Source: Squalus acanthias (lineage: Eukaryota). From it: 64,000 nt of DNA. How positions within the stretch are numbered: the stretch's first letter is position 1; every line of letters starts with the position of its first letter. Position numbers and translations under genes: made by a program. This document shows positions 2,991 through 63,980 of this stretch, piece by piece. The notes under the pieces were generated by a model, which was given only the letters and a program-made list of their open reading frames with translations, was not told where the DNA came from and searched no databases. The stretch is from contig CM059431.1 in NCBI GenBank assembly GCA_030390025.1, positions 155,870,001-155,934,000 of the forward strand, given 5' to 3'.

Positions 2991-2999
2991 AACCATATT

Positions 3000-8769: not shown

Positions 8770-8885
8770 CAGAAAGGAATTGCATTTATAAAGTGCCTTT
8801 CACGACCACAGGATGTCCGAAAGCACTTTACAGCCAATTTGTACATAGCAAGGTCCCACAAACAATAATGATTTAATCTGTTGGA
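8770..8885 (-). mobile_element. DeuSINE 3' fragment
   Basis: Matches the tail and core of 6918-7385 and 29820-30290 (ttgcatttata..gcctttca; aagcactttacagccaatttg..cagcaagg). Confidence 0.7.
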
Positions 8886-13490: not shown

Positions 13491-16400
13491 CACAGGAATG
13501 CAGGTAGTTGATTGGTTGTTGAATATTACAGTCTGGTTTAGTCTCTCAGCTCGCTAAGAAACTGTAAATTGTTATAACTTTACTTTATTAAATTAGTAAC
13601 TAAACTAGCTAAACTAATTAAGTAATAAAACTGAAATAATTGATGAAAAAATAATTAATGAACTAATCCAATAAATAAAGGTTACATACATATGGTAGAG
13701 TAGGTGGTGTGACGTAACTGCAGCATGTATGAGTTTGTGGAGATCAGCGAGTTCCCAAGCAATCACGTCTGCGGTAAATGTCTGCAGCTCGAGGAACATC
13801 GGCTCAGATTTTTTGAGCTAGTGTACGAAGTGCAGACATTAGGATGCATCAGGGAGGGGAAGAATTATCTGGACACTTTCCTCCAGGAGGCAAACACACC
13901 CCTTCGGTTCAGTAGTACTTTAGAATTCGTCAATGGTCAGGGACAGGATGGTGTGACTGCGAGTCAGGAATGTATGGGGACCCAGGATATAGTGATGGAG
14001 ATTCTCGGCCCTTGACTTTGACCAAAAGGTATGAGATAGTTGCTACCTGTGGGAATGAGAACAAGGACTGCAGGGTGGATGAGCAAACTGACCATGGCAC
14101 CATAATGCAGGAGGCCATTCAAGTGGGGGCAGTGAAAAGGAATGTGGTAGCGGTAGGGGACAGTATACTCATAGGGATTGATACTGTCTTCTGCAGCCAC
14201 GACCGGGATTATTAAAGGTAGTGTTGCCTGCCCGGTGTCACGTTAAAGGACGTGTGCTCGTGGAAAGAAAAGAACCTGGAGTGGGAACGGGAGCATCCAG
14301 TTTTCATAGTTCGTGTAGAAACCAACTGAGAGGAGAGAGAGAGGGGCTGCTGAGAGAGCTTGAGAAGTTAGGTTCGAAATTAAAACGCTGAACCTCACAA
14401 TAATAATCTCAGGATTGTTACCCGAGCAACACGCAAATTGGCACAGCGGAAAACAGATTAGAAGATTAAATGAGTGGCTCAAAGTGTGATGTAGGAGGCA
14501 AGGGTTTCAATTCATGGGGCGCTGGCACCAGTATTGGGGAATGAGGGAGCTGTTCCGTGGGGGCGGTCTCCACTTAAAACGGCTGGGACCACTGTCCTGG
14601 TGAATCGTATAACGGGGGTGGTAGATAGGGCTTTAAATTAATGAAGGAGGTGGATGCGGGTTTGGGAGGATTCAGGAAAGTGTAAAATAAAATGCATTAA
14701 GAGAAATATCATAGCGGTAGAGCAGAGTAGTGATCTGAGTGAAGATAAGCAGTGTGGGTCAGGAAGGGACAAAACGATTAATAAAGGTCATAGGGAATTA
14801 GTGGCGAAATGACATCAGGGAAAATTGAAAACACGTTTAAGTTAAAGGTAGCACATCTGAATGCGGAAGCATTCGCAATACAATAGATGCATTCAAAATG
14901 CAGATCGAAATAAAGTGGTTTGATTTAATAGCCATTCCTGAGATATGGTTGCAGAGTGCCAAGTTTGGAACTAAATAATTGAATTTTAGAAGAGACAGGC
15001 AGAATGGAAAAGGAGGAAGGGTAGCCCTGATATTAAAGGAGGGATTAAAGGCAGGAAGGAAAAAGGATCTTGGCTAGGAAGAAACAAAATATAGAATCAG
15101 TTTGGGTGGAGCATAGAAAAAACAAGATGCAGAAAAAATAGTGGGAATAGTCAATAGCCACCTAACAGTGATTGTAGTGTCGGGCAGAATATAAATCAGG
15201 AAATTAGAGGTAAGTGTAACAAGGGCAATAAAGTAATCATTAGGGACATTAATTTTCATATAGATTGAGTAAACCAATTTAGCAAAAAAAGTGCAGAGGA
15301 AGAGTTCATGGAATGCATTCAAAATAGTTTATAGATGAGTATGTCAAGGAACCTAGGAGGGAATTGCATATTTTAGTTCTACTACTGTGCAATGTGACAA
15401 GGTTAATTAATAACCTTGTTTTAATGGAACCTCTGGGGAGCAGTGATTAAAATATGATAGAATTTTAGGTTCAGTTGAGAGTGATTACTTTATGTTGAGT
15501 TTGAGAGTGATTATTTAACAATATAGGTTCCCGAACCTGAACAAAGAATGCACAGAATGTACTCTGGGTGCGGGACTTCAATGTCCATCACCAAGAGTGG
15601 CTCGGTAGCACCACTACTGACTGAGCTGGCCGAGTCCTGAAAGGAATAACTGCCAGTCTGGGCCTGCGACAGGTGGTGAGAGAACCAACACGAGGGAAAA
15701 AGCTACTTGACCTCGTCCTCACCAGTCTACCTGTCGCAGATGCATCTGCCCATGACAGTATTGATAGCAGTGATCACCGCACAGACATTGTGGAGACGAA
15801 ATCCCGTCTTCACACTGAGGACACCCTCCATCGTGTTCTGTGGCACTACCACCGTGAAAATGGGATAGATTCAGAACAGATCTAGCAGCACAAATCTGGG
15901 CTTCCATGAGACGCTGTGGGCAATCAGCAGCAGCAGAATTGTGTTGCACCGTAATCTGTAACCTCATGGTCCGGCAGATCCCTCACTCTACCATTACTAT
16001 CAAGCCAGGGGACCAATCGTGGTTCAATAAGGAGTGTAGAAGAACACGCCTGGAGCAGCACCAGACGTAACTAAAAATGAGGTGCCAACCTGTGGAAGAT
16101 GCAACACAGGATTACATGCGTGCTAAAAAGCGGAACCAGCATGCTATAGACAGGGCTAAGTGATCCTACAATCAACGGATCAGATTAAAGCTCTGCCGTC
16201 CTGCCACCTCCAGTCGTGAATGGTGGTGAACCATTAAACAACTAACGGGAGGAAGAGGCTCCATGAATATCCCCATCCTCAATGATGGTGGAGCCCAGCA
16301 CGTGAGTGCAAAATGCAAGCTGAAGCGTTTGCAATCATCGTTATCCAAAATGCGGAGTGGATGATCCATATCGGCCTCCTCCCGAGGTCCCCACCACCAC

Positions 16401-19080
16401 AGAAGCCAGTCTTCAGCCAATTTGATTCTCTCCACGTGATATCAAAAAACGGCTCAGCGCATTGGATACAGCAAATGTTATTGGCCCTGACAACATCCCG
16501 GCTATCGTGCTGAAGACTTGCGCTCCAGAACGAGCCGCGCATGTAGCAGAGCTGTTCCAGTACAGCTACAACACTGGCGTCTATCCGACAATGTGGAAAA
16601 CTGGCCAAGTATGTCCTGTCCACACAAAGCAGGACAAATCCAATCCTGCAAATTACTGCCCGATCAGTCCACTCTTAATCATCAGCAAAGTGATGGAAGG
16701 TGTAATCGACATTGCTATCAAGCAGCACCTACTCACCTATAACCTGCTCACTGATGCCAAATTTGCGTTCTGCCAAGACCACTCTGCTGCCGACCTCATT
16801 ACAGTCTTGGTCCAAAAATGGACAAAGGAGCGGAATTCCAATTGTGAGGTGAGAGTGACTGCCCTTGACATAAAGGCATCATGTGACCGAGTGTGGCATG
16901 AAGGAGCAAGCTAAAACCGAAGTCAATGGGAATCAGGGGTAAACTCTCCACTGGCTGGAGTCATACCTAGGACAAAGGAAGATGGTTGTGGTAATTGAAG
17001 GTCAATCATCACAGCCCCAGGACATCGCTGCAGGAGTTCCTCAGGGCAGTGTCCTAGGCCCACCCATCTTCAGCTGCTTCACAATAGACCTTCCCTCCAA
17101 CATAAGATCAGAAATGGAGATGTTCGATGTTTACTTCACATTGTTCAGTGCCATTCGCAACTCCTCAGATAATGAAGCAGTCCATGCCCGCATGCAACAA
17201 GACCTGGACGACGTTCAAGATTGGGCTGATATGTGGCAGATAACATTCGCGCCACAGAAGTGCCAGGCAATGTCTATCTCCAACAAGCGAGAATCTAACC
17301 ACCGCCCGTTGACAATCAATGGAATTACCGTCGCCGAAACCCCCACCATCAGCATCCTGGGGGGTCACCATTGATCAGAAACTTAACTGCATCAGCCACA
17401 TAAATAAGGTGGCAAAAAGAGCAGGTCAGAGGCTGGGTATTCTGCGGCGAGTGTCTCACCTCCTGACTCCCCAAAGCCTTTCTACCATTTACAAGGCACA
17501 AGTAGGCTGTGTGATGGAATACTCTCCACTTGCCTGGATGAGTGCAGCTTTAACAACACTCAAGAAGCTTGACACCATTCAGGACAAAGCAGCCCGTTTG
17601 AATGGTACTCCATCTACCACGTTAAATATTCACTACCACCATCACCGGCGTACCGTGGTTGCAGTGTGTACCATCTACAAGATGCACTGCAGGAACTCGC
17701 AACGCTTCTTCGGCAGCACTTCCCAAACCCGCGAACTCTTCCACCTAGAAATCCAAGGGCAGCAGGCGCATGGGACCACGAGAACCTCCAAGTTCCCCTC
17801 CAAGTGACACACCATAATGACTAAGACGTGTATCGCCGATCCTTCATCGTCGCTGGCTCAAGTTCCTTGAACCCTCTACATAACAGCACTGTGGGAGTAC
17901 CGTCAGCACACGGGCTGCAGATTTTCAAGAATGCGGCTCAGCACCAGCTGCTGAAGGGCAATTAGGGATGGGCAATAAAAGCTGGCCTTGCCACCGACGT
18001 CCGCATCCCATAAACATATAAAAAAATTCGCAGTTATGAGAGGCGAGTTGGCTACGGTAGTTTGGGTAACTAGAATTAAAAAAATGAAATCAGGAAAGCA
18101 GCGGGAAATATTTAGAAAAAGGAATTCAGAATCCATAGTGAATTTATATTACTTAAGAAATTAAATCAACACGGGAAAAATGGTTCAACCTTGGCTAAAA
18201 AGAGAAATTTAAGATAGTATTAGATTAAAGGAAGAGGCTTATAATGTTGGAAAAAAGTGTTGTAAGCCTAATGATTGGGAGGGTTTAGAATTCAGCAAAG
18301 TAGGCACAACAAATTGCTAAAGAAAGTGAGAATAGAATATGTGAGTGAACTAGAAAGAGACATAACATACACTGTACAAGCTTCTATCAGTATGTGAAAA
18401 GGCAAAGATTAGCGAACGTAAACGTGGATCCCTTACAGGCTGAGACAGGAGAAATTATAAAGGGAAATAAGGTAATGGAAGGTAAATTCAACAAATACAT
18501 TGTGTTTGCCTGCATGGAAGAAGATGCAAAAAACCTCCTGGAATAGTGGAGAACCAAAAGTCTAGCGAAAATGAAGAACTGAATGAAATTAGTATCAGTT
18601 AAAAATAGTACTGGAGAAATTAATGGGACTGAAAGTTGATAAATCCCGTGGAACTAATGGGCACATCCTAGGGTTTTAAAAAGAGGTATCTGCGGAGAAA
18701 ATGCATGCATTGGTTGTCATCATCCAAAATTCACAAGTTTAGAAGGGTTCCCGTGGGTTGGAAGGTAGCAAGTGCAACCCCACTATTTAAGACAGGAGGG
18801 AATGAAAAAATGGAGAACTACAGTCCAGTTAGCCTGACATCAGTCACATGGAAAATGCTAGAATCTGTTATTAAGGACGTTTTAACAGGACACTTATAAA
18901 AATAATAATAGGATTGGGCAGAGTTAGCACGAATTTATGAAAGGGAAATCGTGTTTGAGAATCATGTTGGAGTTTTTTGAGGTGGTAATTAGCCGAATAA
19001 ATAAGGGGGAAGCAGTTGGTACTGTGTAGTTGGATTTTGGGAAGTCAATTCGTTAAGGTGTCAGACAAGAGGTAAGTAAA
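13490..19080 (+). mobile_element. Decayed near-full-length CR1 (5'UTR, ORF1 zinc-finger/SGNH esterase, ORF2), split by the LINE at 15549-18025
   Basis: ORF1 HVCGKCLQLEE and AVGDSILIG; endonuclease 14850-15540. ORF2 resumes after 18025 (NLNK|..MRGELA; WKVASATPLFK..NYSPVSLTS). Confidence 0.9.
15549..18025 (+). mobile_element. 5'-truncated copy of the tRNA-headed LINE family (endonuclease end, RT, 3' tail), nested in CR1
   Basis: ORFs 16462..16914 (GPDNIPAIVLKTCAPE..NYCPIS..ALDIKASCDRVWH), 16982..17374 (GVPQGSVLGP) and 17319..17807. Collinear with 47065-49475. Ends aagggcaattagggatgggcaataaaagctggccttgcc..catccca plus A-rich tail. Confidence 0.95.
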
Positions 19081-29229: not shown

Positions 29230-29819
29230 ATTCACGTTTCTAATTTGTTTGTCCCTATGCCAATTTCACGTGCCTGGAGTAAAAATCCGGATATTATTAT
29301 CCTTAGTGTTCCTGCTTTTCAATTTAATGCCTATCTGCTGATACTAATTCAGCAGAACCTACTCCCTGTTCGTTCCTACGACATTCGCTAAACATAGACA
29401 ACGAAAACTGGATTTCCCCCTTTCCAATTTTCTTTCCAGCAACTTCGAGATATAATTAGGATAATTGGGCAGACCAAATTATGGCTAAGGCTTTAATGTC
29501 GGGAATCAAGAGTTTAAACTCTTCAAACAATGGGACACAATGGGAAACATGGGATACTGTGCGGAACCTATACGAGCTGCAGAGCGGGTCTAGCAACCAG
29601 GGTAGATAGAATGGAGAGGGATATTTTAACTGAATGTGAAGTAAGATACAATAGGTGAAAGAGAGCAACCATAGCGGTTGGAGTAAACTTTAGCATGTGC
29701 TCCTGAAAAAATAAACCATTATGATTAATAAGACTAATTCAAATGAAGGTAGAAAAACAAAGTAAAAATGTTAACAATGTATAGGGGAAAGGTGAAAGCC
29801 AATTGAGCTTTAGAACGTA

Positions 29820-30290
29820 AGAAAGACTTGCAATTAAAATGCGCCTTTCATGTCCGCAACGACGTCCCAAAGCGCTTTACAGCCAATGAATTACATTTGA
29901 AGTGTAGTCACTGCTGTACTGCAGGAAGCACGGCAGCCAATTTGCGCACAGCAAGCTTCCACATCCAGCAATGTGATAAGGACCAGATAATCTTTTTTTT
30001 GTTATTTTGACTGATGGATAAATATTGGTCAGTGCACCAGGGATAACTCACCTGCTCTTCTTTGAAATAGTGCCATGGGATCTTTTACATCCACCTGAGA
30101 GAGCCGAATGGGCCTCGGTTTAATGTCTCATTCGAAATTTTTCACCTCGAACAGTGCAACACTCCCTCAGCACTGCACTGCCGTGTTGGCATAGGTTTTG
30201 TCTCCAAGTCTCCGCAGTGGGGCTTAAACGCACAACGTTCTGCCTCGGATGCGAGACTTCTACCCACTGTGCCAATGCTGAAACATAAAC
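29820..30290 (-). mobile_element. DeuSINE/SacSINE1-like SINE, full length
   Basis: Same family as 6918-7385; conserved core 'aatagtgccatgggatcttttacatccacctgagag'. Confidence 0.85.
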
Positions 30291-31019: not shown

Positions 31020-31430
31020 AATACATTCTTTGAATGTGAGCATCCCTGGCATTTGTTACCCATCCCTAATTTCACTTAACTGAATGGTTTGCTAGGACAT
31101 TTCAGAGGGCTGTTAAGTGTCAACGATATTGCTGTGTTTCTGGAGTCACAGCAGCTCCCACATCCAGCAAAGTGATAAGGACCACATTTCGGCCAGACCG
31201 GGTAAGAACGGCAGATTCCCTTCCCTAAAGGACATTAGTGAACCAGCTGGATTTTTACAACAATCCAATAGTCCATGGTCACTATTCTTCATACTAGCTT
31301 TTTTTCATGATTTACTAAAATAACTGAATTTAAAATTACCCAGCTGCTGTGGTGGGATTTGAACTCATGTCTCCAGATCATTAGTCCAGGTCCCTGGATT
31401 CACTAGTCTAATAACATAAGCTCTATGCCC
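31020..31430 (-). mobile_element. tRNA-headed SINE (head joined directly to the LINE tail), nested in a CR1 3' fragment (30840-31830, +)
   Basis: B box GAGTTCAAATCCC. Core GGTTCACTAATGTCCTTTAGGGAAGGGAATCTGCCG. Junction ..CCATTCAGTT|AAGTGAAATTAGGGATGGG. Confidence 0.9.
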
Positions 31431-36072: not shown

Positions 36073-39000
36073 TATAGAGTCATACAGTTAGATAGCACAG
36101 AAAGAGGCCCTTCGGCCCATCATGTCCGCGCCGGTAATCAAGCCCTGTCTATTCTAATCCCATTATCCAGCAATTGGCCGTAGCCTTGTATGCTATGGCA
36201 TTTCAAGTGCCCATGCTTCTTGAATGCGGTGAGGGTTCCTGCCTCTACCACCCTTTCAGGCAGTGAGTTCCAGATTCCAATCCCCCTCTGCGTGATAATG
36301 GTTTTCCACAATTCCCCTCAAAAGCTCCTGCCCCTTACCTTGAAACTATGTCCTGTGGTTATTGACCTCTCTACTAAGGGGAAAAGTTCCTTTCTATCTA
36401 CCCTATCCATGAACCTGATAATTTTGTACACCTCAATCAGGTCCCCACTTAGCCTTCCCTGCTCTAGGGAAAGCAACCCCAGCCTGTCCAGTCTCCCTTC
36501 GCAGCTGAAGCGCTCCAGCTCAGGTAACATCCTGGTGAATCTCCTCTGCACTCTGTCCAATGCAATCACATCCTTCCTATAGTGTGGCGACCAGAACTGC
36601 ACACAGTGTTCCAGCTGTTGGCTAAATAGCGTTGTGTACAGCTTCATCATAACGACCTTGCTCTTATATTCTATGGCTCGGCTAATGAAGGCAAGTATCA
36701 CATATGCCTTTTTAACCACCTTATCTACCTGTCCTGCTGCCTTCTGGGATCTATATGCATGCACACCAAGGCCCCTCTGATCTCTGTTCTTCCTAGGGTC
36801 CTACCATTCATTGTGGATTACCTTGCCTTGTTAGTCCTCCCAAAATGCATCACCTCACACTTTTCAGGGTTAAATTCCATTTGCCACTGTTCTGCCCATC
36901 TAAGCATCCCGTCGATATCGGCCTGTAACCTGAGGCTATTTAACACTCCACCAATTTTCGTGTCATCTGCGAACTTACTGATCATACCTCTTACATTCAT
37001 ATCTAAATCAGTAATGTACACTACAAACAGTAAGGGACCCAGCACCGCTCCTTGCGTTACCACACTGGACACAGGGTTCCAGTCACAAAAACAACCTTCA
37101 ACGATCACCCTCTGCCTCCTGCCACGAAGCCAATTTTGAATCCAATGTGTCAAATGTCCCTGGATCCCATCGACTCTTACCTTGTTCATCAGTCTCCCAT
37201 GTGGGACTTTGTCAAAAGCCTTACAGAAGTCCATGTAGACTGCACCAACTGCACTACTCTCATCCACACATCTAGTCAACCCCTCGATAAATTCAATCAA
37301 TTTGGTCATACTGATCACCCCCTGACAAAGCCATGCTGACTATCCATGATTAATTCCTGCCTCTCCAAGTGGAGACTAATTCTGTCCATCAGAAATGTTT
37401 CCAATAATTTCCCTATCACTGAATTTAGGGTCACTGGCCTATAATTCCCTATTTTTTTCCTTACTACCCTTCTTGAACAATCGTGTTCTCCAGTCCTCTG
37501 GCACCTCCCCTGTGGCCAGAGAAGTTCTGAAAATTTGTGTCAGAGCCCCTGTAATCTCCTCCCTTGCCTCACACAGAAGCCTGGGATACATCCCGTCATG
37601 GCCTTGGGTTTATTCACTTTTAAGCCGGCTAAAACCGCGAGTACGCTCCCTCACAATACAATTTTTTTCAAGTATATCTCAATCCAGCTGCCTGATTTCT
37701 ATGCCTACATCGTCCATCTCCATAGTGAACACAATTGCCAAATTTTCATTTAAAACCTCACCTATATCTTCCGGCACTTGCCTTTAATATTCTCATCAAA
37801 CACCTTGGGATTTTCCTTCATTTTGCCCGCCAGTGTTTTTTCATGCCCCCTCTTCGCTCTCCTAATTTTTTTTTAAGTACCCCCCTGCACTTTCTATAAT
37901 CCTCTAGGGCTTCCACTGTTTTTAGTCCTTTGTATCTGCCAACAGCCTGCCGTTTTTTCCTTATCCATTCTTGTATATCCGCTGACATGCAAGGTTCACT
38001 GGAATTGTTGGTCCCACCCTTGACCTTTAAGGGAACATGTTGGCGTTGTACTCTCACTAGTTTCTTTCTGAAAGACTCCCACTGCTCTAATGTGGATTTT
38101 CCTACAAGTTCCTGATCCCAGTCCACTTTGGCCAGATCCTGCCTTATCATGTTAAAATCGGCCTTCCCCCAAATTTAGAAACTCTATTTCCGCTCCATCT
38201 TTGTCCTTTTCGATGACTACCTTAAATCTCAGCGAATTATGGTCAGTTTCACCAAAATGCTCTCCTACTGACACTTCTACCATTTTCCCGGCTACATTCC
38301 CAAGAATTAGGTCAATAACCGCCCACTCTCTTGTAGGACTTTCTACATGCTGGCTCAAAAAGTTCTCCTGGATGCATTTTAATAATTCTGCGCCTTCTAA
38401 GCCTTTCACACTCTCACTATCATAGTTAATATTGAGGACGTTGAAATCCCCTACTCTTATTACCCTATTATTTCTACACATCTCTGAGATTTGCCGACAT
38501 ATATTTTGCTCCATCTCCCCCTGACTGTTTGCGGGCCTATAGTACACTCCCAGCAAAGTGCTTGCCACCTTTTTGTTTTTATGTTCTACCCATATGCCCT
38601 CATTAGAGGAACCTGCTAAGATATCATCCCTCCTTAAAGCAGTAATGGACTACTTGATTAATATTGCGGCACCCCCTCCTCTTTTACACCCCCCTCTGTC
38701 TCGCCTGAAGATTCTATACCCCGGAATATTGAGCTGCCAGTCCTGCCCCTCCTTCAGCCATGTCTCTATGACAGCAACAATATCATACTCTCTTGTGTTC
38801 ATCAACACCTTCAATTCATCTGCCTTCCAGGCTGACTTGCCATTTCCTCTATGTTTGGCCGTGCATGACCCGCTACTATAGCTCCAACCGTATCCCATCC
38901 CCCTGCCAAGTCAGTTTAAACACCTCCCCCCCCGACCACCCCAACAGTACTAGTACACCTCCTCGCAGTGATATTGGTCCCGTTCCGTTTCCGTTGCAAC

Positions 39001-40510
39001 CCGTCCGACTTGTACCGGTCCCACCATCCCCAGAAGCAGAGCCAGTGAACCAGGAAACTAAAGGCCTCCCTCCTGCAGCAACTCTTTAGCCACGCATTCA
39101 CCTGCTCTATCCTCCTATTCCTATACTCACTAGCACGTGTCATCGGGAGTAATCCAGAGATTACAACCTTTGAGGTCCTGCTTTTTAATCTGCTGCGTAG
39201 ATCCCTACATTCTTGTTGCAGGACCTCATCCCTCTTTCTACCAATGTCGTTGGTACCAATGTGAACCACGACCTCTGAAGTTTGCCCTCCCGCTTCAGAA
39301 TGCCCTGCAGCCGTTCAGTGACATCCTTGACTCTGGTACCAGGGAAGCAACATACCATCCTGGAGTCATGTCTGCGGCCACATAAACGTCTATCTGTTCC
39401 CCTTACGATAGAATCCCCTATCACTACTGCTCTCCCACTCTTTTTCCTCCACTCCTGTGCAGCTGAGCCACTCGTAGTGCCACGTGCTTGACTTTTGCTG
39501 CATTGCCCTGAGAAAACATCACCCCCATCAGTTTCCGAAACACAAAATCTGTTGGAGAGGGAGATAGACCCAGGGGACCCCTGCACTACCTTCCAATTCT
39601 TTTTCTCTGTCTGGCGGTCACCCATTTCCTGTCTGCCTGTGCAGTCTTTACCTGCAGTGTGACCACCTCGTTAAACGTGCTATCCACGAAGATCTCAGCG
39701 TTGCGGATGCTCCACAGTGACTCCAGCCGCAGCTCCAGCTCCGAAACGCGGTTTTCTACTAGCTGTACCTGGAGACTCTTCCTGCACATGTGTTCGCCCT
39801 GGACGCCTAAAGTGTTCCTGACTGCCCACATAGCACAAGAGGTGCACTCCACCAGCCGAGCTGCCCTGCCATGTCCTACCCTTAGTTTTCTCCCTTTACT
39901 TCCTTTAAATTAATGAATATTAAATACACCAGCCACCTTACTTCCCTTTAAGCACTACTTACTCTAAACTAGAGACCTTACTTTGCCTTTAACGACAGGA
40001 CTGTAGAAATACTCACCAGGTCCTACTTACCAATCAGCTCCTTCTCTGGCTGTGACATCACTTTAGCTGTTTCGCAGTTGTTGTTGTTTGACTGCTCCTG
40101 CTCTCGTACTCTTTCTTTGGTGTTAGTAAGAACCAATACCTACAGGGGGAAAAGTTGGGAAAAACAAAGGCGAAGCAAGGGAGCTACTCCTTCCACTCCT
40201 CACCTAGCTCCCTGACTCACTCAACTCGCAGCACTCTGTTTAAACTGAACTCAGTGCAAAATCGCACTTCAAAACCTGTTTTTATAGGACCTGAAACAAT
40301 GGAGCTTGCTGTTTTCTGCTACAGGAGAACCAATCTAATTTCCCTAATTAACTGCCGTCAGCTGCTCTGAATTATAGGCCTTGTATATCCCTTTATAACC
40401 ATGCTTAAAGCTGGAAAATTTAGATTTTAAACAGTAAACAGTAACAGTAAATGTGAAACAAACAACAGTTTTAGCAAACAGTTAAGCATTCTGTTTAAAC
40501 CGCACCCAGT
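36073..40510 (-). mobile_element. Full-length (~4.4 kb) CR1 LINE with 9-bp target-site duplication; ORFs disrupted
   Basis: TSD CTTTATTTC at 36064-36072 and 40511-40519. 5'UTR ~39880-40510. ORF1 MECTSCAMW..VIGDSIVRG..HIGTNDIG..DGL (zinc finger plus SGNH esterase). ORF2 YDIVAVIETW, YYRP, GDFN, FADDTK. Confidence 0.95.
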
Positions 40511-45750: not shown

Positions 45751-46247
45751 AGTTTCGGAGACTGTATTCGGGCACATGGAGTGTGTTTCTGTGGGCGAAC
45801 ATCTGGTTAATAGAGATCATAATATAATTAGGTTTAAAGATGTTATTGAAAGTGAAAAAATAAAATCAACGATGAAATCTCATTTCAGTGTTTTGAGAAT
45901 GGAAACAAAGATTGACCAATGAAACAGTAAATGAACAAAAACAGGCCTTCAACAAGGAGATAATTTGTCTATAACCAGGCAAGTTCCTAAAAGGAGGAAA
46001 GATGTGGCATCCAAAGCTAGATTTCCCTGGATGAAAAAGAAGTAGAGGTTAAAAGAAAAAAGAAAAAGGAGGTTTATAAAAACTTTCAGGAAAAAAATAC
46101 AATCGAAAACCAGACATAATAGATAATGCAGGGGAAAATTTAAACTGGATATAAGAAGGACAAAGACCGATTATGAGAAAATATCAGCAGGTAATATTAA
46201 AGGGAAACCAAACATCATTAAACATAAAAAGTAAAAGGAATGGTGGA

Positions 46248-49200
46248 TACAGTATCATAGTGGTTAAGTTACTGGACAATTAATCCAGGGGCCTGGATAA
46301 ATGATCCGGTGATATGGTTCAAAATCCCTCCATGGTAGCTGGTGAATTTACTTTCAGTTAATTAAAGACATCTGGAATAAAAAGCTATTATCAGTAATGG
46401 TAACCATGAAACTATCGATTGTCGTAAACTCCCATCTGGTTCACTAATGTCCTTTCGGGAAGGAAATCCGTCGTTCATACCTGGTTGAGCCTGTATGTGA
46501 CCCCAGACTCATTGCAATGTGATTGGCACTTAACTACCCTCTGAAATGGCCTAGCAAGCCACTCAGTTGTAACAAACCGCTACGAAGCAAAATAATAAAA
46601 ATGAAACCGGACAGACCACCCGGCATCGACCTCGGCACCGGCTATGGACACGACAACGGCACACCCAGCCCAATCAACACGGCAAATGCCTCCTCACCAA
46701 CATCTGTGAACTTGTGCCAAAATTGGGAGGGCTGTCCCACAGATTAGTCAAGCAACAACCTGACATAATCATTTTCACAGAATCATACCATTCAGCCAAT
46801 GTCCAAAACATCATCATCCCTGGGTATGACCTGTCCCACCAGCAGGACAGACCCACCAGGGGTGGCGCCACAGTGGTATACATTCGGGAAGGAGTAGCAC
46901 AGGGTGTCCTCAGCATTTACTCCGGAACCCATGAATTCTCATGGCTTCAGGTCAAGAATCGGCAAGGAAACCTCCTGCTGATTATCAACTACCGTCGTCC
47001 TCAGCTGATGAATCACTACTCCGCCATATTGAACACCACTTGGAAGAAGCAATAAGAGTTGCAGGGGCACAGAATGTACTCTGGGTGGAGGATTTAAATG
47101 TCCATCAACAAGCGTGGCTCGGTAGCAACACGACTGACCGAGCTGGCCGAGTCCTTAGGCCTCGCGAGGTGGTGAGAGAAACAACACGAGGGAAACACCT
47201 ACTTGACATCGTCCACGCCAATCTACCTGTCGCAGATGCATCTGTCAATGACAGTGTTGGAAGAAGTGAACACCGCAAAGCCATTGTTGAGACGAAGTCC
47301 CGTCTTCACACCGAGGGCACCTTCCATCGTGCTGTGTGGCACTACCACCGTGCTAATTGGGATAGATTCAGAACAGATCTTGCAGTTTAAAACCGGGCAT
47401 CCATGAGGTGGTGTGGGCCATCAGCACCAGCATAATTGAATTCCAACAGAATCTGTCACCTCATGTCCCGGCTTATCACTCACTCTATCATTACCATCAA
47501 GTCAGGGGACCAATACTGGTTCAATAAGGAGTGTAGAAGAGCATGCCAGGAGCAGCATCGGGAGTGCCTAAAAATGAGGTACCAAACTAGGGAAGCTGCA
47601 ACACAGGACTACACGCATGCTAAAAATCGGGAGCAGCATGCTATAGACAGGGTTAAGCGACCCCACAATCAGCGGATCAGATCAAAGCTCTGCAGTCCTA
47701 CCACATCCAGTCGTGAATGGTGGGGAACCATTAAACAACTAACGGGCGGAAGTAACTCCATTAATATCCCCATCCATAATGGTGGTTGATCCCAGCACGT
47801 GAGTGCAAAAGACAAGGCAGAAGCGTTTGCAATCATCTTCAGCCAGAAGTGCCGAGTGGATGATACATATCGGCCTCCTCCTGCCGTCCCCACAATCACA
47901 GAAACCAGTCTTCAGCCAATTCGATTCACTCCACGTGATATCAAGAAACGGCTGAGCGCACTGGATACAGCAAAGGTTATCGGCCCCGACAACATCCCGG
48001 CTATCGTGCTGAAGACTTGGGCTACAGAACTAGCTGTGACTCTAACCAAGCTTTTCCAGTACAGCTACAACACTGGCATCTATACGGCAATGTGGAAAGC
48101 TACCCAGGCATGTCCTTTCTAAAAAAAGCAGGACAAATCCAATCCGGCCAATTACCGCCCCAACTGTCTACTCTCAATTATCAGCAAAGTGATGGAAGGT
48201 GTCATCGACAGCGCTATCAAGCGGCACTTACTCACCAATAACCTGCACACGGGTGCCAAGTTTGGATTCGGCCATGACCACTCGGCTCCCGACCTCATTA
48301 CAGCCTTGGTCCGAACATGGACAAAAGGAGCTGAATTCCAGAGGAGAAGGGAGAGTGACTGCCCTGAGCAAAATTTAATCGAGTGTGGCATGAAGGAGCC
48401 CAAGTAAAACTGAAGTCAATGGGATTCAAGGGGAAACTCTCCCCTGGCTGGAGTCATACCTAGCACAAGGACGATGGTTGTGGTGATTGAAGGTCAATCA
48501 TCACATCCCCAGGATATCACTGCAGGAGTTCCTCAGGGCAGTGTCCTAGGCCCAAACATCTTCACATGCTTCATCAAAGACCTTCACTCCTAAATAAGGT
48601 CAGAAATGGGAATGTTTGCTGATGACTGCACAGAGTTCAGTGCCACTCTCAACTCCTCAGATAATGAAGCAGTCCAGGTCCGCAGGGAACAAGACTTGTA
48701 CGACTTTCAGGCTTCGGCTGATAAGTGGCAGGTAACATTCGCGCCACAGAAGTGTCAGGCAATGAATATCTCTAATAAGCGAGAGACCAACCACCGCCCC
48801 TTGATATTCAATGGCCTTACCATCACCGAATCCCTCACCATCAACATCCTGGGTGTCGCCATTAACCAGAAACTTAACTGGAACAGCCACATAAATACTG
48901 TGACAACAAGACCAGGTCAGATGCTGGGTATTCTGCGGCGAGTGTCTCACCTCCTGACTCCCAAAAACCTTTCCACAATCTACAAGGCACACGTAAGGCG
49001 TGTGATGGAATACTCCCCACTTTCCTGGATGAGTGCAGCTCCAACAGCACTCAAGGCGATCGACACCCTCCAGGACAGAGAAGCCAGCTTGATTGGCAAC
49101 CTATCTAACACCTTAAATATTCACTCCCTCCACCACCGGCGTACCATGGCTGCAGTGTGTACCATCTACAAGATGCACAGGTGGAACTCGCCAAGGCTTC

Positions 49201-49475
49201 TTCGGCAGCACCTCTCAAACCCGCGATCTCTTCCACCTAGAAGGACAAGGGCAGCAGACGCATGGGAACACCACCACCTCCACGTTCACCTCCAAGTCAC
49301 ACAGCATCCTGACTTAGAAGTATATCGCCGATCCTTCTTGGTCGCTGGGACAAAATCCTGGAACTCCCCACCTAACAGCACTGTGGGAGTACCATCACCA
49401 CACGGACTGCAGCGGTTTAAGAACGCAGCTCAAAACCATCTTCTCAAGGGCAATTAGGAATGGGCAATACATGTT
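46248..49475 (+). mobile_element. Near-full-length tRNA-headed, ORF1-less LINE (single APE-endonuclease plus RT ORF, CR1-group-like), disrupted
   Basis: A-box-like TATCATAGTGG (46253-46263) and B-box-like GTTCAAAATCC (46317-46327), then SINE core to ~46570. Then LLTNI..VPKL..PDIIIFTES..GG..VY..YR..DLN..TRG..LD, RT (GPDNIP, GVPQGSVLGP, MFADD) and tail ctcaagggcaattaggaatgggcaat. Confidence 0.92.
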
Positions 49476-53024: not shown

Positions 53025-54814
53025 GACATAAGAACAGAAGAAATAGGAGCAGGAGTAGGCCAATTGGCCCCTCGAGCCTGCTCCGCCGTTCAATAAGATC
53101 ATGGCTGATCTGATCCTAACCGCCAATCTACTATCACAGAACCATCTCCAGAAGCTAACTGAATTGGACACAAGAAATAAGAGCAGGATCAGGCTACACG
53201 GCCCCTGGGCCCGCTACGCTACCCACAGGGCCATGACCGATCCGAACCTAGACTCATGTCCAAATTCTTCCCGCTCCCCGTAACCCTTAATTCAATTTAC
53301 TTCTAGGAAACTGCCTATTTCTGTTTTAAATTTATGTAATGATGTAGCTTCTACAGCTTATTGGGGCAGCATATTCCATGGACCTACCACCCTCTGAGTG
53401 AAGTAGTTCCTTCTCATCTCAGTTTTGAAAGAGCAGAGCCTTATTCTAAGACTATGCCCCCTAGTTCTAGTTTCACCCATCATCGGGAACATCCTCCCCG
53501 CATCCACCCGATCCAAACCCTTCACAATCTTATATGTTTCAATAAGATCGCCTCTCATTCTTCTGAACTCCAATGAGTAGAGTCCCAAACTGCCCAACCT
53601 CTCCTCATATGTCCATCCCCTCATCCCCGGGATTAACCGAGTGAACCTTCTTTGTAAAGACTCGAGAGCAAGTATGTATTTTCTTAAGTATGAACACCAA
53701 AACTGAGTGCAGTATTCCCGGTGCGGTCTCACCAATACCTTGTACAACTGAAGCAATACCTCCCTATTTTTATATTCTACCCCTTAGCAATGAAAGCCAA
53801 CATTCCATTGGCCTTCTAAATTACTTGCTGCACCTGCATACTAACCTTTTGAGTTTCGTGCACCAGGACCCCCAGATCCCTTTGTACTTCAGTACTTTCC
53901 AGTTTCTTGCCATTTAGATAATAACTTGCTCTACTATTTTTCCTGCCAAAGTGCATAACCTCACACTTTCCAGTATTGTATTCCATCTGCCAAATCTCTG
54001 CCCCCTTACTTAGCCTGTCTATGTCCCCTTGCAGATTTTTTATGTCCTCCTCACTCACTACTTTCCCTCCCATCTTAGTATCATCTGCAAACTTTGATAT
54101 GTTACACTCGGTCCCCTCCTCGAAATCGTTAATATAGATTGTAAAGAGTTGGGGACCTAGCGCAGACCCCTGCGGAACACCACTAGTTACTGATTGCCAG
54201 TCTGAGAATGAACCATTTATCCCAACTCTCTGTTTTCTGTTAGATAGCCAATCGTCTATCCATGCCAGAATATTACCCCCAATCCCGTGTTTTTTTATTT
54301 TAAGCAATAATCTTTTGTGTGGCACCTTGTCAAATGCCTTTTGGAAATCTAAATACACCACTGCCACTGGTTCCCCTGTATCCACACTGTGTGTTACTTC
54401 CTCAAAAAACTCCGGCAAATTTGTCAAACATGACTTCCCCTTCATAAAACCATGCTGACTTTCTCCTATTAAATTATGATTATCCAAATGTCCCGTTACT
54501 GTCTTCTTAATAATGGACTCCAAAATTTTACCTACCACAGATGTTAGGCTAACCGGTCTATAGTTTGCAGCCTTCTGTCTACTGCCCTTTTTAAATAAGG
54601 GTGTTACATTAGCAGTTTTCCAGTCTGTCGGGATCTTTGCTGAGTCCAGGGGGATTTGGAAAATTATTACCAATGCATCCACAATCCCTACTGCCACTTC
54701 CCTCAAGACCCTAGGATGTAAGCCATCAGTTCCAGGTGATTTATCCGCCTTGAGTCCCATTATTTTACCGAGTACCACTTCCTTAGTGATTTTGATCGTG
54801 TTTAGCTCCTCCCC
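53025..54814 (-). mobile_element. Young 5'-truncated CR1 with an uninterrupted RT domain and duplicated 3' module
   Basis: ORF 53816..54955 is open over KSPGTDGLHP..LDFQKAFDKVPH..GVPQGSALGP..FADDTK. ORF 53358..53756 gives the C-terminus. Same subfamily as 19085-20480. Confidence 0.97.
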
Positions 54815-54930
54815 CGCATGCCCGATAGGAGACTCCCAAAACAAGCGCTCTACTCGGAGCTCCGACACGGCAAGACAGACCAAGGTGGGCAGAAGAAACG
54901 ATTTAAGGACACCCACAAAGCCTCCTTTAC
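54815..54930 (+). mobile_element. Short RTE-clade LINE fragment
   Basis: + strand RMPDRRLPKQALYSELRHGKTDQGGQKKRFKDTHKASF, the characteristic RTE ORF C-terminal motif. Confidence 0.8.
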
Positions 54931-55507
54931 CAATATATACCACCCTTACTGACATTGATTCTGCCTGTCCTTGTTTTTTTTAACAAATCCCACATCTTTT
55001 CAATTTCCCTTTGCAGTTTCCTCTGGTATAAATAAGTAACTGTAATCCACATTTTCGCACCATCTGCAAATTCCGGTAATGATATATAATCAAGTTAGTA
55101 ATAGATTAGAATAGTGGCCGCAGAACTGAATCATGCGGGGCAGCACCACTACTTTCAACAACTTGTATGCAGAACAAAACTTGGACGTTGACGGTTACTT
55201 CAATGCAATTTTCAAGTAACTTCCAGATGATGTATCCAATAAGTAATAATACACCAATATATCGTTTTAGGATATATATATATATATATAGAACACATAC
55301 ATATATGAGATCCGGTGCCCCACAAGATCAAGCAGTCCAACAGCTCCTCGACCCACACTTTGCAGTCAGTCACTAGTCTAACGTTAATTTGCAGAAGTGA
55401 CTCATTTGTGAAAGGTATATCATGCCTGACAAATCCGATTAAAATTTTTTGAGGAGGTGACTAAATTAGTAGACAGGGGTACGTGAATGGATGTTATTTA
55501 TATGGAC

Positions 55508-58500
55508 ATAATAACATAAGAACATAAGAAATAGGAGCATGAGTAGGCTATTCGGCACTTCGAGCCTGCTCCACCATTCAATGAGATCATGGCTGATCAT
55601 CTGACTCAACTCCATTCACCGGCCCTATCGCCATATCCCTTGATGCCCTTACTAGTCAGAATCTATCGACTTCTGTTTCGAATATACACAATGACTGAAC
55701 CTCCACAGCCCTCTAGGGTAGTGAATTCCAAGGATTCACCACCCTCTGTGTGAAGAAATGTCTTCTCATCTCAGTCCTGGATGGCCTAAGCTTTCTCTTG
55801 AGTCTGTGGCCCCTGATTCTAAACTCCCCAGCTCATGGAAATATTCTCCCAAAATCCATCCTATCAAGCCCTGTAATAATTTTGTATGCTTCAATGAGAT
55901 CCCCTCTCATTCTTCTGAATTCAAAAGAATTCAGGCATAGTTTACTCAATCGCTTCTCATACGACTGTCCCGCCATCCCAGGAATCAAACTCATGAACCT
56001 TCGTTGCACTCCCTCTATGGCAAGTATCTCCTTCCTTAGGTAAGGAGACCTAAAGTGTACACAGAACTCCAGGTGTGGTTTCACAAAGGCCTTTATAATT
56101 GGAGTAAGACTTATTTACTCCTGTTCTCAAATCCTCTTGTAATGAAGGCCAGCATACCATTTGTTTTCCTAATGGCTTCTTGCACATGCACATTCACTTT
56201 CAGTGACTCATGCACAAGGACACCCAGAACCCTTTGAGCATCTGCATTCCCCAATCTTTCACCATTTAGGAAATACGCTGCCTTTCTGTTTTTTCAACCA
56301 AAGTGGATATCTACACATTTATGCACCTTATATTCCATCTGCCATGTTCTCGCCCACTCACTGAGCCAGTCGAAATCCCCTTGAAGCATCTTCACATCCT
56401 CTTCGCAGCTGCCGCTGCCACCTAGCTTTGTATCATCAGCACATTTTGAAACATTACATTTAGTCCCCTCTTCCAAATCAGTGATATAGATTGTGAATAG
56501 CTGGGGCCCAAGCACCGATCCTTGCTTTACCCCACTTGTTACAGCCTGCCATTCAGAAAAAGACCCGTTTATGCCAACTCTATGCTTTCTGTCTGTTAAC
56601 GAATTCTCAATCCATGCTGGTGTATTACCCCCAATTCCATGTGCCCTAATTTTGTTCACCAACCTCTTGTGTTGGAACTTATCGAAGGTCTTCTGAAAAT
56701 CTAGATACACCACAACTACTGTTTCCCCTAAGTCTACTCCAGTAATTACATCCTCAAAGAACCCAATTGGTATGTCAAACAGGATTTACCTTACATAAAT
56801 GCATGTTGACTCTGCCCAATCTTACTATTAGTTTCGAAGTGCCCAGTTATTGCATCCTTTATAATTGATTCCAGCATTTTACCATGGACAACTTTTCCCT
56901 TATACCCTTCTAGTTTCCTCTGTTTAGATTGAAGACCTTAGTTTCAGATTGGACTACATCACTCTCAAGTTAAAAGTAAAATTCAATCATATTATGTTCA
57001 CTTGTCCCTAAAGGCCCCTTTACCACAAGATTATTGATTAGCTCTTTCTAACTACACTGTACCAGATGCAGAATAGCCTGTTCCCTGGTTGGTTCCTCCA
57101 CATACAGATAGAGGAAAACATCTCGCATGCATTCCAATAATTCGTCCTCCACACCATTAGTGGTAATTTGATATGCACAGTCAAAATGTAGATTAAAGTC
57201 ACTCATGATTACCGTATTGTCCATGTTACATGCACTTCTAATATCTTGATTGATACTGTGCCCTACATTACCATTAATGTTTGGTGGCCTATACACAACT
57301 CCCACCATTTTTTTCCGCCATTTGCTATTTCTTAGCTCCACCCAAATTGATTCCAGTTCTACTTCACGATCTGCCAAGCCAAGATCTTTTATCTCTACCG
57401 TACCTATATCGTCCCTTATCACAGCGCAACGCCACCTCCTTTTCCTTTTTTTTGTCCTTCCTAAATGTTGAGTACCCTGGACCATTCAGTTCCCAGCTTT
57501 GGTTACCCTGCAAGCATGTCTCTGTAATGGCAATTACATCATACCCATTTACTTCTATTAGTGCCATTAATTTATCCACCTTTTTGTGAATGCTACGAGC
57601 CTTTAGATACAGTGCCTTCAACTTTGCCTGTTAAATATGTTTCTGCAATTTGAACCTCTTTACTGTTGGCCTTTGTATCTGTTCCCTATTGTTTTGCTGA
57701 CTACTTTTCTAACTTTCACTTCCAGCTTTGTTTCTCTCCATTCTGGGCCCAGACTTAGGTTCCCAGCCCCCTGAAAAATGAGCTTAAATCCTTCCCAACA
57801 GCACTAGCAAACCCCCCTGAGAGGATGTTGGTCCCGCTTCTGCCGAGGTTTAAACCGACCAGCTTGTACACGTCCCACCTTCCCCAGAATCGGATCCAAA
57901 GCCTCAGGAATTTAAATGCCTCCCTCCTACACCATCTCGCCAGCCACGCATTCATCTAATCTATACTCCTATTTATGCTCTCGCTAGCACGTGTCACTGG
58001 GCGTAATCCTGAGATTACTAACTTTGAGATCCTGCTTTTTAATTTATTTTCTAGCTCCCTATATTCTGCTTGCAGGACCTCGTCCCTCTTTCTACCTATG
58101 TCGTTGGTACCGATATGGACCACGACCTCTGGCTGTTCATTCTCCCCCTTCAGAATGTCCGGCAGTGACATCCTTGACCTGTCCTGGAGTAACGTCTGCG
58201 GCCACAGAAACGTCTATCTGTTCCCCTTACGAGAGTATCCCCTATCACTATTGCTCTCCCACACTTTTTCCTCCCCTCCTGTGCAGCTGAGCCACTCGTT
58301 GTGCCACGGACTTGCCTCTTGCTGCATTCCCCTGAGAAACCATCTCCCCAAGCAATATCCAAAACGGAAAATCTTTTGGAGAGGGAGATGGACCCAGGTG
58401 ACTCCTGCACTACCTTCCGAGTTATTTTACTCTGTCTGGCGGTCACCCATTCATTCTCTGTCTGCCTATGCCCTCTTTACCTGTGTTGTGACCACCTCGT
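55508..58500 (-). mobile_element. Internally deleted CR1 (ORF1, EN, RT, 3'UTR) nested in the RT of a + strand CR1 (55400-55507 and 58500-59650)
   Basis: Host reads DVIYMD|FQKEFDKFPH across the insert. Insert has IGDTLVRG, HIGTNDIG, YDVIAITET and CADDTK; EN-RT junction deleted near 56880. Confidence 0.9.
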
Positions 58501-60372: not shown

Positions 60373-61043
60373 CAGCAGCATACTATAGACAGAGCTAAGT
60401 GATGCTAAACCAATGGATCAGATCAAATCTCTGCAGCTCTGCAGCATTCAATTGTGAATGGTGGTGGATATGTAAACAACTTACGGGAGGAGGAGGCTTC
60501 GGCAACTTGCCCATCCTAAATGATGGCGGACGGTAGCATGGTGGTTACGTTACTGGACTAGCAATTCAGAGGCCTGGACTATTGATGATCCAGAGTATAG
60601 GTAGTTCATATCCCAACAGGGGAGCAGTGGAATTTAAATGCAGTTAATTTAATAAATCTGGAATTAAAAAGCTAGTATCAGTAATGGTGAACAAGTAACT
60701 ACCGGATTGTCGTAGCAACCCACCTGGCTCACTAATGTCCTTTATGGGAGGTAATCTGCCGTCTGGCCAATATGTGATTCGAGAAAGAGAACAAGAGTTA
60801 ACGTTTCGTCCGAGCTGGAAAACGTTAGAAATATAATAGCTTTTAAGCAAGTATAGAGGCAGGGAAAGGTTTATCCGGAAAAGCCCTCCCCACTGACATT
60901 TGGGGACTTGTGCCAAAATTGGGAGAGCTGTCCCACAGACTAGTCAAGCAAGAACCCTGTCATAATCATAATCACAGAATCATACCTTTCAGGCAACGCC
61001 CCAGATTACTCCAGCACGATCCCTGGGTAGGTCCTGTCCCACC
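60373..61043 (+). mobile_element. Rearranged pieces of the tRNA-headed LINE: internal fragment (60373-60528), head (60529-60780), Penelope-derived patch (~60781-60870), endonuclease start (60875-61043)
   Basis: A box TAGCATGGTGG and B-box-like GTTCATATCC. Then LPTDIWGLVPKLGELSHRLVKQ matching 46690-46850. Confidence 0.85.
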
Positions 61044-63980
61044 GCTAGTACCTCCTCCCTCTCAATACTAATTTGTTCAAGTATAGCACAATCCCCCTGC
61101 CTGATTTCTATGCCTACACCGTCCTTCTCCATAGTGAACACAGATGCAGAATATTCATTTAAAACCTCACCTACATCTTCCGGCTCTACGCACATCTTGC
61201 CACTTTGGTCCCTAAAGGGCCAGTCCCTTTCCCTGGTTATCCTCTTGCCCTTAATATACTTATAAAACACCTTGGGATTTTACTTTATTTTGCACAGCAA
61301 TGATTTTTTCATGCCCCCTCTTCGCTCTCATAATTTATTTTTTAAGTACCCCCCTGCACTTTCTATACTCCTCTAGGGCTTCCACTGTTTTTAGTCCTTT
61401 GTATCTGCCATAAGCCTACCTTCTTTTTTTGATCCATTCTTGTATATCCCTTGACATCCAGGGTTCCCTGTGTTTGTTGGTCCCTCCCTTCACCTTTATG
61501 GGAACATGTTGGCGTTGTACTCTCTCTTTTTTCTTTCTGAAAGACTCACACTGCTCTGATGAGGCTTTACCTACAAGTAGCAAATCCCAGTCCACTTTGG
61601 CCAGATCCTGCCTTATCATATTAAAATCGGCCTTCCCCCAATTTAGAAACATAATTTCCGGTACATCTTTGTCCTTTTCCATGACCACCTTATATCTCAA
61701 CGAATTATGGTCACTGTCACCAAAATGCTCTCCTACTGACAATTCTACCACTTGCCCGGTTACATTCACTAGAATTCGGTCCCACTCTCTTGTAGGACTT
61801 TCTACATGCTGACTCAAAAAGCTCTGCTGGATTCACTTTAAGAATTCCGCACCTTCTAAGCCGTTCACACTCTGACTATCCCAGTTAATATTGGGGAATT
61901 TGAAATCCCCTACTATTATTACCATATTATTTCTACACTTCTTTGAGATTTTCCTACATATCTGTTCCTCTATCTCCCCCTGACTGTTTGAGTCATATAG
62001 AATACTCGCGGGAAAGTGTTTGCCCCCATTTTGTTTTTAAGTTCTACCCATATGGCCTCATTAGAGTAAACTGCTAAGATATCATCCTTCCTTACAGCAG
62101 CAATTGACTCCATGATTAATATTGCGATACCCCCTCCTCTTTTACACCCCCTCTGTCTCGCCTGAAGATTCTATACCCCGGAATATTGAGCTGCAAGTCC
62201 TGCCCCTCCCTCAACCATGTCTCTGTGATAGCAACAATATCATACTCCCATGTGTTCATCAACACCTTTAATTCATCTCCCATACTCACAAGACTCCATG
62301 CATTAAAATAAATGCCATCCAGCCTTGCCATACTCTCTTGTGCCGTTACATATTTGCTCTGCCTTCCAGGCTGACTTGTTTTTCCTCTGTATTTGGTTGT
62401 GCATCAACCCCTACTATAGATCCACTCTTTATTCCCATCCTCCTGCCAAGTCAGTTTAAGCACCCCCCAAAATACTAGCAAACGATCTCGCAAGAATGAT
62501 GGTCCAGTTCCGGTTCAGTTGCAACGCGTCTGACTTGTACAGGTCCCACCTTCCCCAGAAGCAGATCCAGTGATTCAGGAAACTAAAGCCCTCCCTCCTT
62601 CACCAACTCTTCAGCCATGCATTTCTATGCTCTATCCTCCTATTCCTATACTCGCTAGAAAGTGGCACCGGAGTGAACCAGAGATTCAAACTTTGAGGTC
62701 CTGCTTTTTAATCTGCTACCTAGCTCCCTAAATTATTGTTGCAGGACCTCATCCCTCTTTCTACCTATGTCGTTGATACCAATGTGAACCACGACCTATG
62801 ACTGTTCGCCCTCCCCCTTCAGAATGCCCTGCAGCCATTCAGTGACATCCATGACCTTGGCACCAGTGAAGCAACATACCATCCTGGAGTCGAGTCTGTG
62901 GCCACAGAAACGTCTATCTGTTCCCCTTACGATAGATTACCCTATCACTATTGCTTTCCCACTCTTTTTCCTCCCCTCCTGTGCAGCTGAGCCACTCGTA
63001 GTGCCACGGACTTGGCTCCTGCTGCTGTCCCCAGAGAAACCATCTCCCCCAGCAGTATCCAAAATTGAAAATCTGTTGGAAAGGGAGTTGGACCCAGGGG
63101 ACTCCTGCACTACCTTCCTAGGTCTTTTACTCTGTCTGGCGATCACCGATTTACTGTCTGCCTGTGCATTCTTTACCTGCGATGTGACCACCTCGTTAAA
63201 CGTGCTATCTACGAAGATCTCAGCTTCGCGGATCCTCACAGTGACTCCAGCCGCAGCTCCAGCTTCGAAACGCGGATTTCGAGTAGCTGCAGCCGGAGAC
63301 ACTTCCTGCAGAAATGATCGCCCTGAACACCTAAAGTGTCCCTGACTTCCCACACAGCACAGGAGGAGCTCACCACGGTGCTGAGCTGCCCTGCCATGTC
63401 ATACCCTTAATTTACTCACATTACTTCCTTTAAATTGAAGAATATTAAATACACTAGGGTCCTTACGTCCCTTTAAACACTACTTACTCTAAACTAGAGT
63501 CCTTCTTTCACTTTAACGACTGGACTGTAGAAATACTCATTATGGTCCTACTTACCAATCAGCTCCTTCCCTGGTTGTGACGTCACTTTTGCGGTTTCGC
63601 AGTTGTTGTATGACGACTCCGGCTCGGACTCTTTCCTTGTTGTAAAGTAAGAACCACTTCCTAACGGGTGAAAAATTAGGTAAAACTAAGGCTAAGCAAT
63701 GGAGCTCCTCCTTCCACTCCTCACCTAACTCGCTGACTCACCCAACTCACAGCACTCTGTTTAAACCGCACTTAGTGCAAACTCGAACTTCAAAGCCTTT
63801 TTTTATAGGTCCTGAAACAAAGGAGACTTGCTGAGCCCAGCTGCAGGAGAACCAGTTTAATCTCGTTTCCCAAATTAACTGCCTTCAGCTGTTCTGAAAT
63901 GTAGGCCTTGTATAGCCCTTTATAACCTTGCTTAAAGCTGGGAAATTTAGATTTTAAACAGTAAACAGTAACAGTAAATA
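61044..63980 (-). mobile_element. CR1, same subfamily as 36073-40510 (5'UTR, ORF1, endonuclease; RT missing)
   Basis: Collinear with 37660-40450, including the 5'UTR (acagtaaacagtaacagtaaat). Confidence 0.95.

Follow-up and report, generated by a model that had tools for sequence, protein, structure and literature searches.

A LINE of the shark Squalus acanthias with a fixed tRNA-Thr-derived head, and the short forms derived from it

The window, a stretch of 64,000 nt from the Squalus acanthias genome (contig CM059431.1, positions 155,870,001 to 155,934,000), harbors at 46245-49473 (+) a decayed copy of a 3.3-kb LINE that is 90% identical to the majority sequence of its family. The copy begins with a tRNA-Thr(AGT)-derived head (46245-46336), which contains a tandem duplicate of the anticodon arm, an A box (46253-46263) and a B box (about 46316-46328). 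It continues with a body or 5' leader of ~235 nt (46337-46569) that belongs to no Rfam family, is not Deu and terminates in a predicted hairpin with a 7-nt loop (46541-46566). The short segment that follows (46570-46584) holds an in-frame stop (46570), a GCT (46579) and an ACG (46582). A single EN-RT reading frame extends from about 46573 to 49457 and counts 973 codons from stop to stop in the family majority; in the window copy, which is inserted within a CR1 ORF2, it is interrupted by stops and frameshifts. The APE-type endonuclease domain (46684-47283, end approximate; PF14529 and PF03372 in copies L053 and L057) and the reverse transcriptase (RT) domain (approximately 48135-48860; PF00078 in L053 and L065) were mapped onto the window from sister copies, where both exceed the Pfam cut-offs; three fragments of the window copy, too short or off-domain, matched no Pfam family. 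The 3' tail (49412-49473, AATAAA at 49466) is common to the LINE and its short forms; in the window copy, the final ~38 nt of the family are missing, and with them the rest of a tail hairpin, as is the A-tail. Head, frame and tail were thus located as an earlier note on this DNA had described them. That note had also seen no room for an ORF1, and indeed only 114 nt separate the in-frame stop from the start of the endonuclease motif at 46684, while ordinary CR1 carries an ORF1, as it had stated (a GDSL-esterase ORF1 fragment lies at 38919-39314 (-), upstream of its endonuclease). An APE endonuclease followed by RT in one frame, a common 3' end, variable 5' truncation and the lack of LTRs define the family as a LINE.

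The window contains further members of the family. A 5'-truncated copy of the same LINE lies at 15550-17977 (+). A second head-bearing copy, given as 60529-61043 in the earlier note and adduced there as support, is rearranged (60530-61044 (+)): head and body (family nt 5-264) and the endonuclease start (nt 441-604) are present, but nt 265-440, including the junction, are missing and an unrelated repeat occupies their place. Since the junction itself is missing, this copy lends weak support, and the real support is found genome-wide. At 60374-60530 of the window and at locus L128, family members are inserted into fragments of their own family. The window region and its flanks are segmentally duplicated at about 91% identity on the same contig, 0.4 and 0.9 Mb away (L032, L036).

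The tRNA-like part of the head comprises ~92 nt, of which nt 2 to 92 can be aligned over the full length of a tRNA-Thr(AGT) gene of the genome. The alignment score is 58.6 against 35 +/- 4 for shuffled sequences, a comparison somewhat favorable to the head because tRNA-Thr was chosen for its anticodon loop. The Rfam tRNA model reaches 22.6 bits (E 0.23) on copy L043, below its cut-off of 29, and does not match the window copy. The A and B boxes are near consensus in both young and old subfamilies. With such a head, the element has the promoter architecture of tRNA-derived SINEs (SINE2), which are short and non-coding; the ~400-nt deletion forms described below agree with them in both respects, the 3.3-kb LINE with its 973-codon frame in its head only. 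An identity of head and body with SacSINE1/Deu is ruled out by published sequences (SacSINE1 head and Deu alignment in the supplements of PMC7245038 and PMC5786205). SacSINE1 and the Deu-SINEs, with L2-2_CM as partner, are described as likewise tRNA-headed shark retroposons of about 400-460 nt (Luchetti, 2017; PMC5499810), but nt 2-78 of the published SacSINE1 match another abundant SINE of the genome and not the LINE head, and this other SINE has no significant match to the LINE (best E 0.71). The Deu core motif is absent from the LINE and occurs 18 times elsewhere among the loci examined. The other tRNA SINE is seen in the window at 29811-30281 (-), also at 6918-7346 and 8780-8838, and in 12 of 20 random segments. 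Inspection by eye and two motifs show a resemblance of its head to the published SacSINE1 and of its body to the Deu domain. Neither head nor body matched any of 80 metagenome loci of relatives (best E 0.92), and a first metagenome scan found none either; relaxed tRNA calls in these relatives are scattered and were judged noise.

Genome-wide, the combination of head and coding frame proved to be constant. A 281-nt junction query on the 3.7-Gb genome yielded 5,858 candidates, and all 40 of them that were scored span the junction. Alignment of 25 colinear sister copies (from 39 other loci) with the window copy produced the consensus that the earlier note had proposed to build: a majority of 3,305 nt with the head and one 973-codon frame, to which the sister copies are 96-97% identical. 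The head-ORF junction is identical in 25 of 25 sister copies, which were chosen by it and hence are not independent. The exact junction pattern has 2,344 matches, against 0 for the reversed control; short forms contribute to this count and make up 8 of the 20 loci that were chosen for their variant spacers. The 5' end was also determined in an unbiased set selected by endonuclease DNA only, in which 30 loci were reduced to 26 independent copies after removal of the window copy, its two segmental duplicates and one further duplicate. Of the 26, 14 reach back to the first head bases, 11 of them extending to nt 1-6 and the other 3 carrying internal deletions; the remaining 12 are 5'-truncated inside head, body or linker, and no other common 5' end occurs among them. 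In a mixed, partly junction-selected set, 38 of 76 loci with an endonuclease start end at most 12 nt from family nt 1. A longer 5' end was considered and rejected: the sequence upstream of five copies is an unrelated antisense SINE, located at varying distances and present in 12 of 20 random segments. The family itself is present in 10 of 20 arbitrary 10-kb segments and covers 8,057 of the 200,000 sampled bases (~4%).

According to the earlier note, its reading would fall if most long copies had another 5' end and the junction varied between copies; neither is the case in the 26 independent copies and the 2,344 matches. Its proposal to count copies within one pair of target-site duplications (TSDs) cannot work because the family makes none: TSDs were scored in 1 of 56 copies and in 7 of 269 mismatched controls, and none exceeds the control. 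Chance or repeated SINE-LINE chimeras, arising from SINE insertions or template switches in front of truncated LINEs, have a precedent in template-switch chimeras such as U6-L1 (Kojima, 2015; PMC4494074). Here they are highly improbable, being refuted by the invariant junction, one and the same in thousands of copies of several subfamilies; besides, no head-less full-length form was found, and the opening codons of the LINE frame are present in short forms.

The reading frame bears the marks of selection. Changes common to at least three of eight older copies comprise 40 synonymous, 27 non-synonymous and 1 stop (41 of 68 at third positions), while private changes of the eight copies comprise 194 synonymous, 470 non-synonymous and 27 stop (n=691). 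As common changes are mostly synonymous and private ones mostly not, the head-bearing source elements kept a working ORF. Judged by these substitutions, the LINE ORF was under purifying selection, as is expected of an autonomous LINE. Given the invariant junction, the lack of an alternative 5' end and purifying selection on the ORF, the element is an autonomous retroposon with a fixed tRNA-type head, and the central claim of the earlier note holds.

With respect to its RT, the LINE stands apart from true CR1. In a quick tree of 63 RT regions, the CR1 of the same genome groups with a bird protein (at 96), and the LINE is placed near amphioxus and brittle-star proteins (at 88). These and unnamed RT relatives are about 40% identical to it; among solved structures, only L1 and R2 were matched (E 1e-14 to 1e-5). 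The LINE does not belong to the CR1 clade proper, as its RT does not group with vertebrate CR1 in this tree; it also has no room for an ORF1 with esterase or zinc finger, and it ends in an oligo(A) rather than a microsatellite tail. Many relatives are single frames of ~935-950 aa on contigs of 3.1-4 kb, so the single ORF is probably ancestral to the clade, and the missing ORF1 is probably a clade trait rather than special to the shark LINE. The absence of ORF1 on which the earlier note had remarked is thereby confirmed, yet it is less special than implied there. The Arg-rich N-terminal stretch of the LINE protein is similar to that of relative P0014. One of the top RT matches, the lepidopteran protein P0013, lies with the LINE outside the true-CR1 branch and is not its sister in the quick tree; CR1-Zenon is a lead for the clade name. 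For whale shark repeats, the label 'CR1-Zenon like LINE' is in use (bioRxiv 10.1101/443036).

The LINE is accompanied by short forms that qualify as SINEs. In the commonest one examined, nt 1-300 are joined to nt 3206-3305, the two parts being 96% and 98% identical to the LINE, and this joint has 220 exact matches. Further joints lead from about nt 342 to 3173 (several copies), from 341 to 3195 or 3207, from 322 to 3238 and from 306 to 3222, which brings the number of joints to at least five. In the window, one short form (2605-2989 (-)) joins family nt 5-300 to nt 3206-3294; an older one with another joint (31078-31428 (-)) contains the body to nt 325 followed by a diverged tail and is split by an insertion. 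Several short forms retain the first codons of the LINE frame, and therefore the direction is from LINE to SINE: by their sequence, the matching SINEs of the genome are internal deletions of the LINE, on which the LINE enzyme clearly acts in trans. The earlier note had left open whether the LINE captured a SINE head or gave rise to it; as regards these SINEs, it is the LINE that gave rise to them. In published cases, the head was added to an already deleted LINE (PMC5786205, PMC4494074), and the order here is the reverse, with the head first and the deletion second.

A tRNA-type promoter raises the question of the polymerase. Pol III is described to terminate at T-runs of the sense strand (PMC9599045), and the sense strand of the 3,305-nt majority contains no run of four or more T (T4+), nor any interrupted run (TVT3, T3VT or 5 of 6 T). 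At an overall T frequency of 0.196, the probability of T falls to 0.139 after T (p 1e-4) and to 0.078 after TT (p 0.002). No comparable deficit is seen for A, G or the opposite strand; C-runs are somewhat depleted as well (C after CC at 0.75 of expectation, p 0.003). Under a codon null that keeps the protein constant, T3+ runs number 5 where 17.3 are expected, and 0 of 3,000 draws were as low. For comparison, 8 T4+ runs occur along the 3,185 nt of the CR1 majority built from the same genome, which shows a mild T3 deficit under the same codon null (33 versus 42.7, p 0.006); individual copies carry 0.14 T4+ runs per kb in the LINE (26 copies) versus 3.2 per kb in CR1 (30 copies). All 47 relatives with frames of at least 500 aa (of 80 loci) have at least 2.3 runs per kb and a weaker TT/TTT deficit or none. 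These controls comprise a single family of the same genome and 47 relatives from other organisms, the relatives all being T-richer (at least 0.22). Taken by itself and conditioned on the low T and TT, the absence of T4 is weak evidence: p is 0.019 by base shuffle, 0.2 under the dinucleotide null, and 0.11 and 0.08 under two codon nulls. Among the changes of older copies, 0 of 68 common and 25 of 691 private ones create a TTT, a difference in the predicted direction that is not significant. The control is a young CR1 family, seen in the window at 53500-57500 (-); its 39 best-matching other copies show 97% identity over 401 nt, and its tail consists of short tandem repeats.

We take the T-run pattern to be the probable result of selection that keeps Pol III terminators out of a coding RNA. 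On sequence grounds, the copied RNA is quite probably made by Pol III, and it appears rather likelier than otherwise that the same RNA also serves as the message. The tails contribute little to this question. LINE tails have the form T(n)A(m), with n+m near 9-10 (3' ends of L034-L069 and L101-L129); T-runs of up to 8 replace A, oftener in long copies than in short forms, and T4+ is present in 7 of 38 scorable LINE tails. As T-runs lengthen at the expense of the A-tail after insertion, they are not diagnostic as terminators. The AATAAA situated 45 nt upstream of the A-tail is compatible with Pol II as well, and is one argument for regarding the element as a Pol II LINE that captured its head once, the head being a relic or start-site marker, the body an internal Pol II promoter, and the T-avoidance a product of base composition or of the avoidance of U-rich splicing and decay signals. 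According to Kojima (2018; PMC5786205), every studied LINE uses Pol II; a capped RNA is also easier to translate, and the T4 absence is not significant under the dinucleotide and codon nulls. Such a Pol II origin is nevertheless unlikely. It is at odds with A and B boxes kept near consensus in young and old subfamilies, with starts falling at tRNA position 1 and with the lack of comparable T-avoidance in the CR1 control and the 47 relatives; moreover, ribosomes on a capped RNA would scan past eight upstream AUGs, none of them in frame.

The first methionine of the reading frame is residue 286, and no in-frame AUG occurs before the endonuclease. The ACG (family nt 339) is the sole in-frame near-cognate codon between the stop and the endonuclease, and of 10 older copies, selected for an intact ACG motif, 8 preserve the frame from it into the endonuclease despite linker indels. 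An upstream ORF with a -1 frameshift was rejected: the AUG at 46601, a feature of the young subfamily, opens 48 codons in another frame, but 9 of 10 older copies lack it, and no slippery heptamer could be made out. The hairpin just upstream of the start region is predicted with high probability, and its 7-nt loop is like a tRNA anticodon loop; the loop triplet (AGC) is the complement of the in-frame GCT that precedes the ACG. In a set of 80 copies, the only variation at one stem position is a wobble pair, the loop triplet and the GCT show no more than background variation, and no compensatory change between the two was seen, only invariance. Dicistrovirus intergenic IRESs initiate without AUG and contain three pseudoknots. 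The element has the hairpin only, no Rfam IRES family was hit up to E 5 on L043, and no ribozyme or IRES family of Rfam matches the element, so it does not class with the IRESs of this type; initiation by a tRNA-mimic hairpin, an analogy drawn post hoc, is accordingly a doubtful proposal. A long-range pairing between body and start region (family nt 179-183 with 338-342; window about 46422 and 46581) is predicted with a probability somewhat above even; in some of the older copies it spans as many as 8 bp.

An RNA without a cap serves poorly as a message. This difficulty would be circumvented if labor were split, i.e. if Pol III made the copied RNA and the protein came from Pol II read-through of copies in host transcription units and acted on the 3' hairpin in trans. 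Such a scheme would account for the promoter, the T-run avoidance and the fixed 5' end without translation of an uncapped RNA, and the enzyme does work in trans on short forms. We consider such a division improbable, slightly more so than a Pol II origin, as selection on the ORF in copied lineages is simpler if the copied RNA is the translated RNA, and the missing in-frame AUG stays unexplained.

The explanation that we favor, and hold to be moderately probable, is an autonomous single-ORF LINE with a fixed tRNA-Thr-derived head that is transcribed by Pol III over 3.3 kb and translated independently of AUG; polymerase and mode of translation are what we infer from the sequence. TFIIIC would bind the internal boxes and Pol III would start at nt 1, so that each full-length copy would take its promoter along. 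The RNA would meet no internal terminator and end at a T-run at or beyond the tail. Uncapped, it would be translated cap-independently from a start at or beside the ACG, with the body as ribosome-recruiting leader. The EN-RT protein would bind the 3' hairpin of its own RNA, and insertion would proceed, without TSDs, by target-primed reverse transcription, a process established for LINEs generally. Deletions that spare promoter and tail would repeatedly yield ready-made SINEs. The fullest version of this scheme has about an even chance of being correct: a self-sufficient SINE-headed LINE that captured a tRNA-Thr promoter, uses Pol III, purged its terminators, is translated without cap or AUG, possibly by means of a tRNA-mimic leader, and acts as a SINE factory across sharks.

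Several known systems share parts of this architecture. CR1-Zenon of Lepidoptera, with its internally deleted partner Persaeus (PMC6740152), is a LINE that likewise yields short forms of 5' and 3' parts again and again, and it has a poly(A) tail; according to that paper, both elements lack tRNA homology and a Pol III promoter. Bov-tA, derived from Bov-B, and SINE2-1_ACar, derived from Vingi-2_ACar, consist as here of a tRNA head and the 5' and 3' parts of a LINE (PMC4494074, PMC5786205), but in these accounts the head was added after the deletion to a non-coding element, whereas here the coding LINE carries the head and one deletion yields the SINE. The T+ SINEs (B2, Can) give Pol III transcripts that are polyadenylated via AATAAA (PMC9599045). 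They share with the LINE a tRNA head, an AATAAA near the end and a T-run of 1-8 before a short A-tail, and differ in being short, non-coding and mammalian. HE1 and HER1 of sharks (PMC3747384) are likewise a tRNA SINE and a LINE partner with a common tail; HE1 is a V-SINE and is set apart by its description rather than by sequence, and the LINE here ends in oligo(A), the CR1 control in a short tandem repeat.

The titles, abstracts and passages of the literature consulted describe no coding LINE whose 5' end is a fixed tRNA head. The family may be deposited in Repbase, Dfam or SINEBase, e.g. under a LINE label like the 'CR1-Zenon like' of the whale shark. The architecture is real and, against the literature consulted, new for a LINE; it would be categorically new if Pol III transcription were confirmed. 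It would then form a natural exception, filling about 4% of a vertebrate genome, to the working line drawn between coding LINEs made by Pol II and non-coding SINEs made by Pol III. It also offers a direct, one-step route to SINEs and explains body and tail of these SINEs from one LINE. Should Pol III transcription hold, the element would provide a naturally occurring long Pol III message whose translation depends on neither cap nor AUG, useful in compact, self-contained cassettes for expression or gene writing.

Traces of the family extend to other organisms. In contigs of uncertain kind, assembled in four runs from four other organisms, all 30 element bins are covered at 80% likeness and several deletion joints occur; among the contig pieces listed from these organisms, none spans the whole element. 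Protein fragments 70-82% identical to the LINE frame are found in the sharks Heptranchias perlo and Heterodontus francisci. At two loci (L080, 2037-3154; L136, 9035-9677), an inverted segment lies beside a forward one, as in twin-primed insertions. Two shark gene models (P0003, storkhead-box 1-like; P0179, aldo-keto reductase-like) contain pieces of the LINE frame, representing either exonisation or an annotation artefact.
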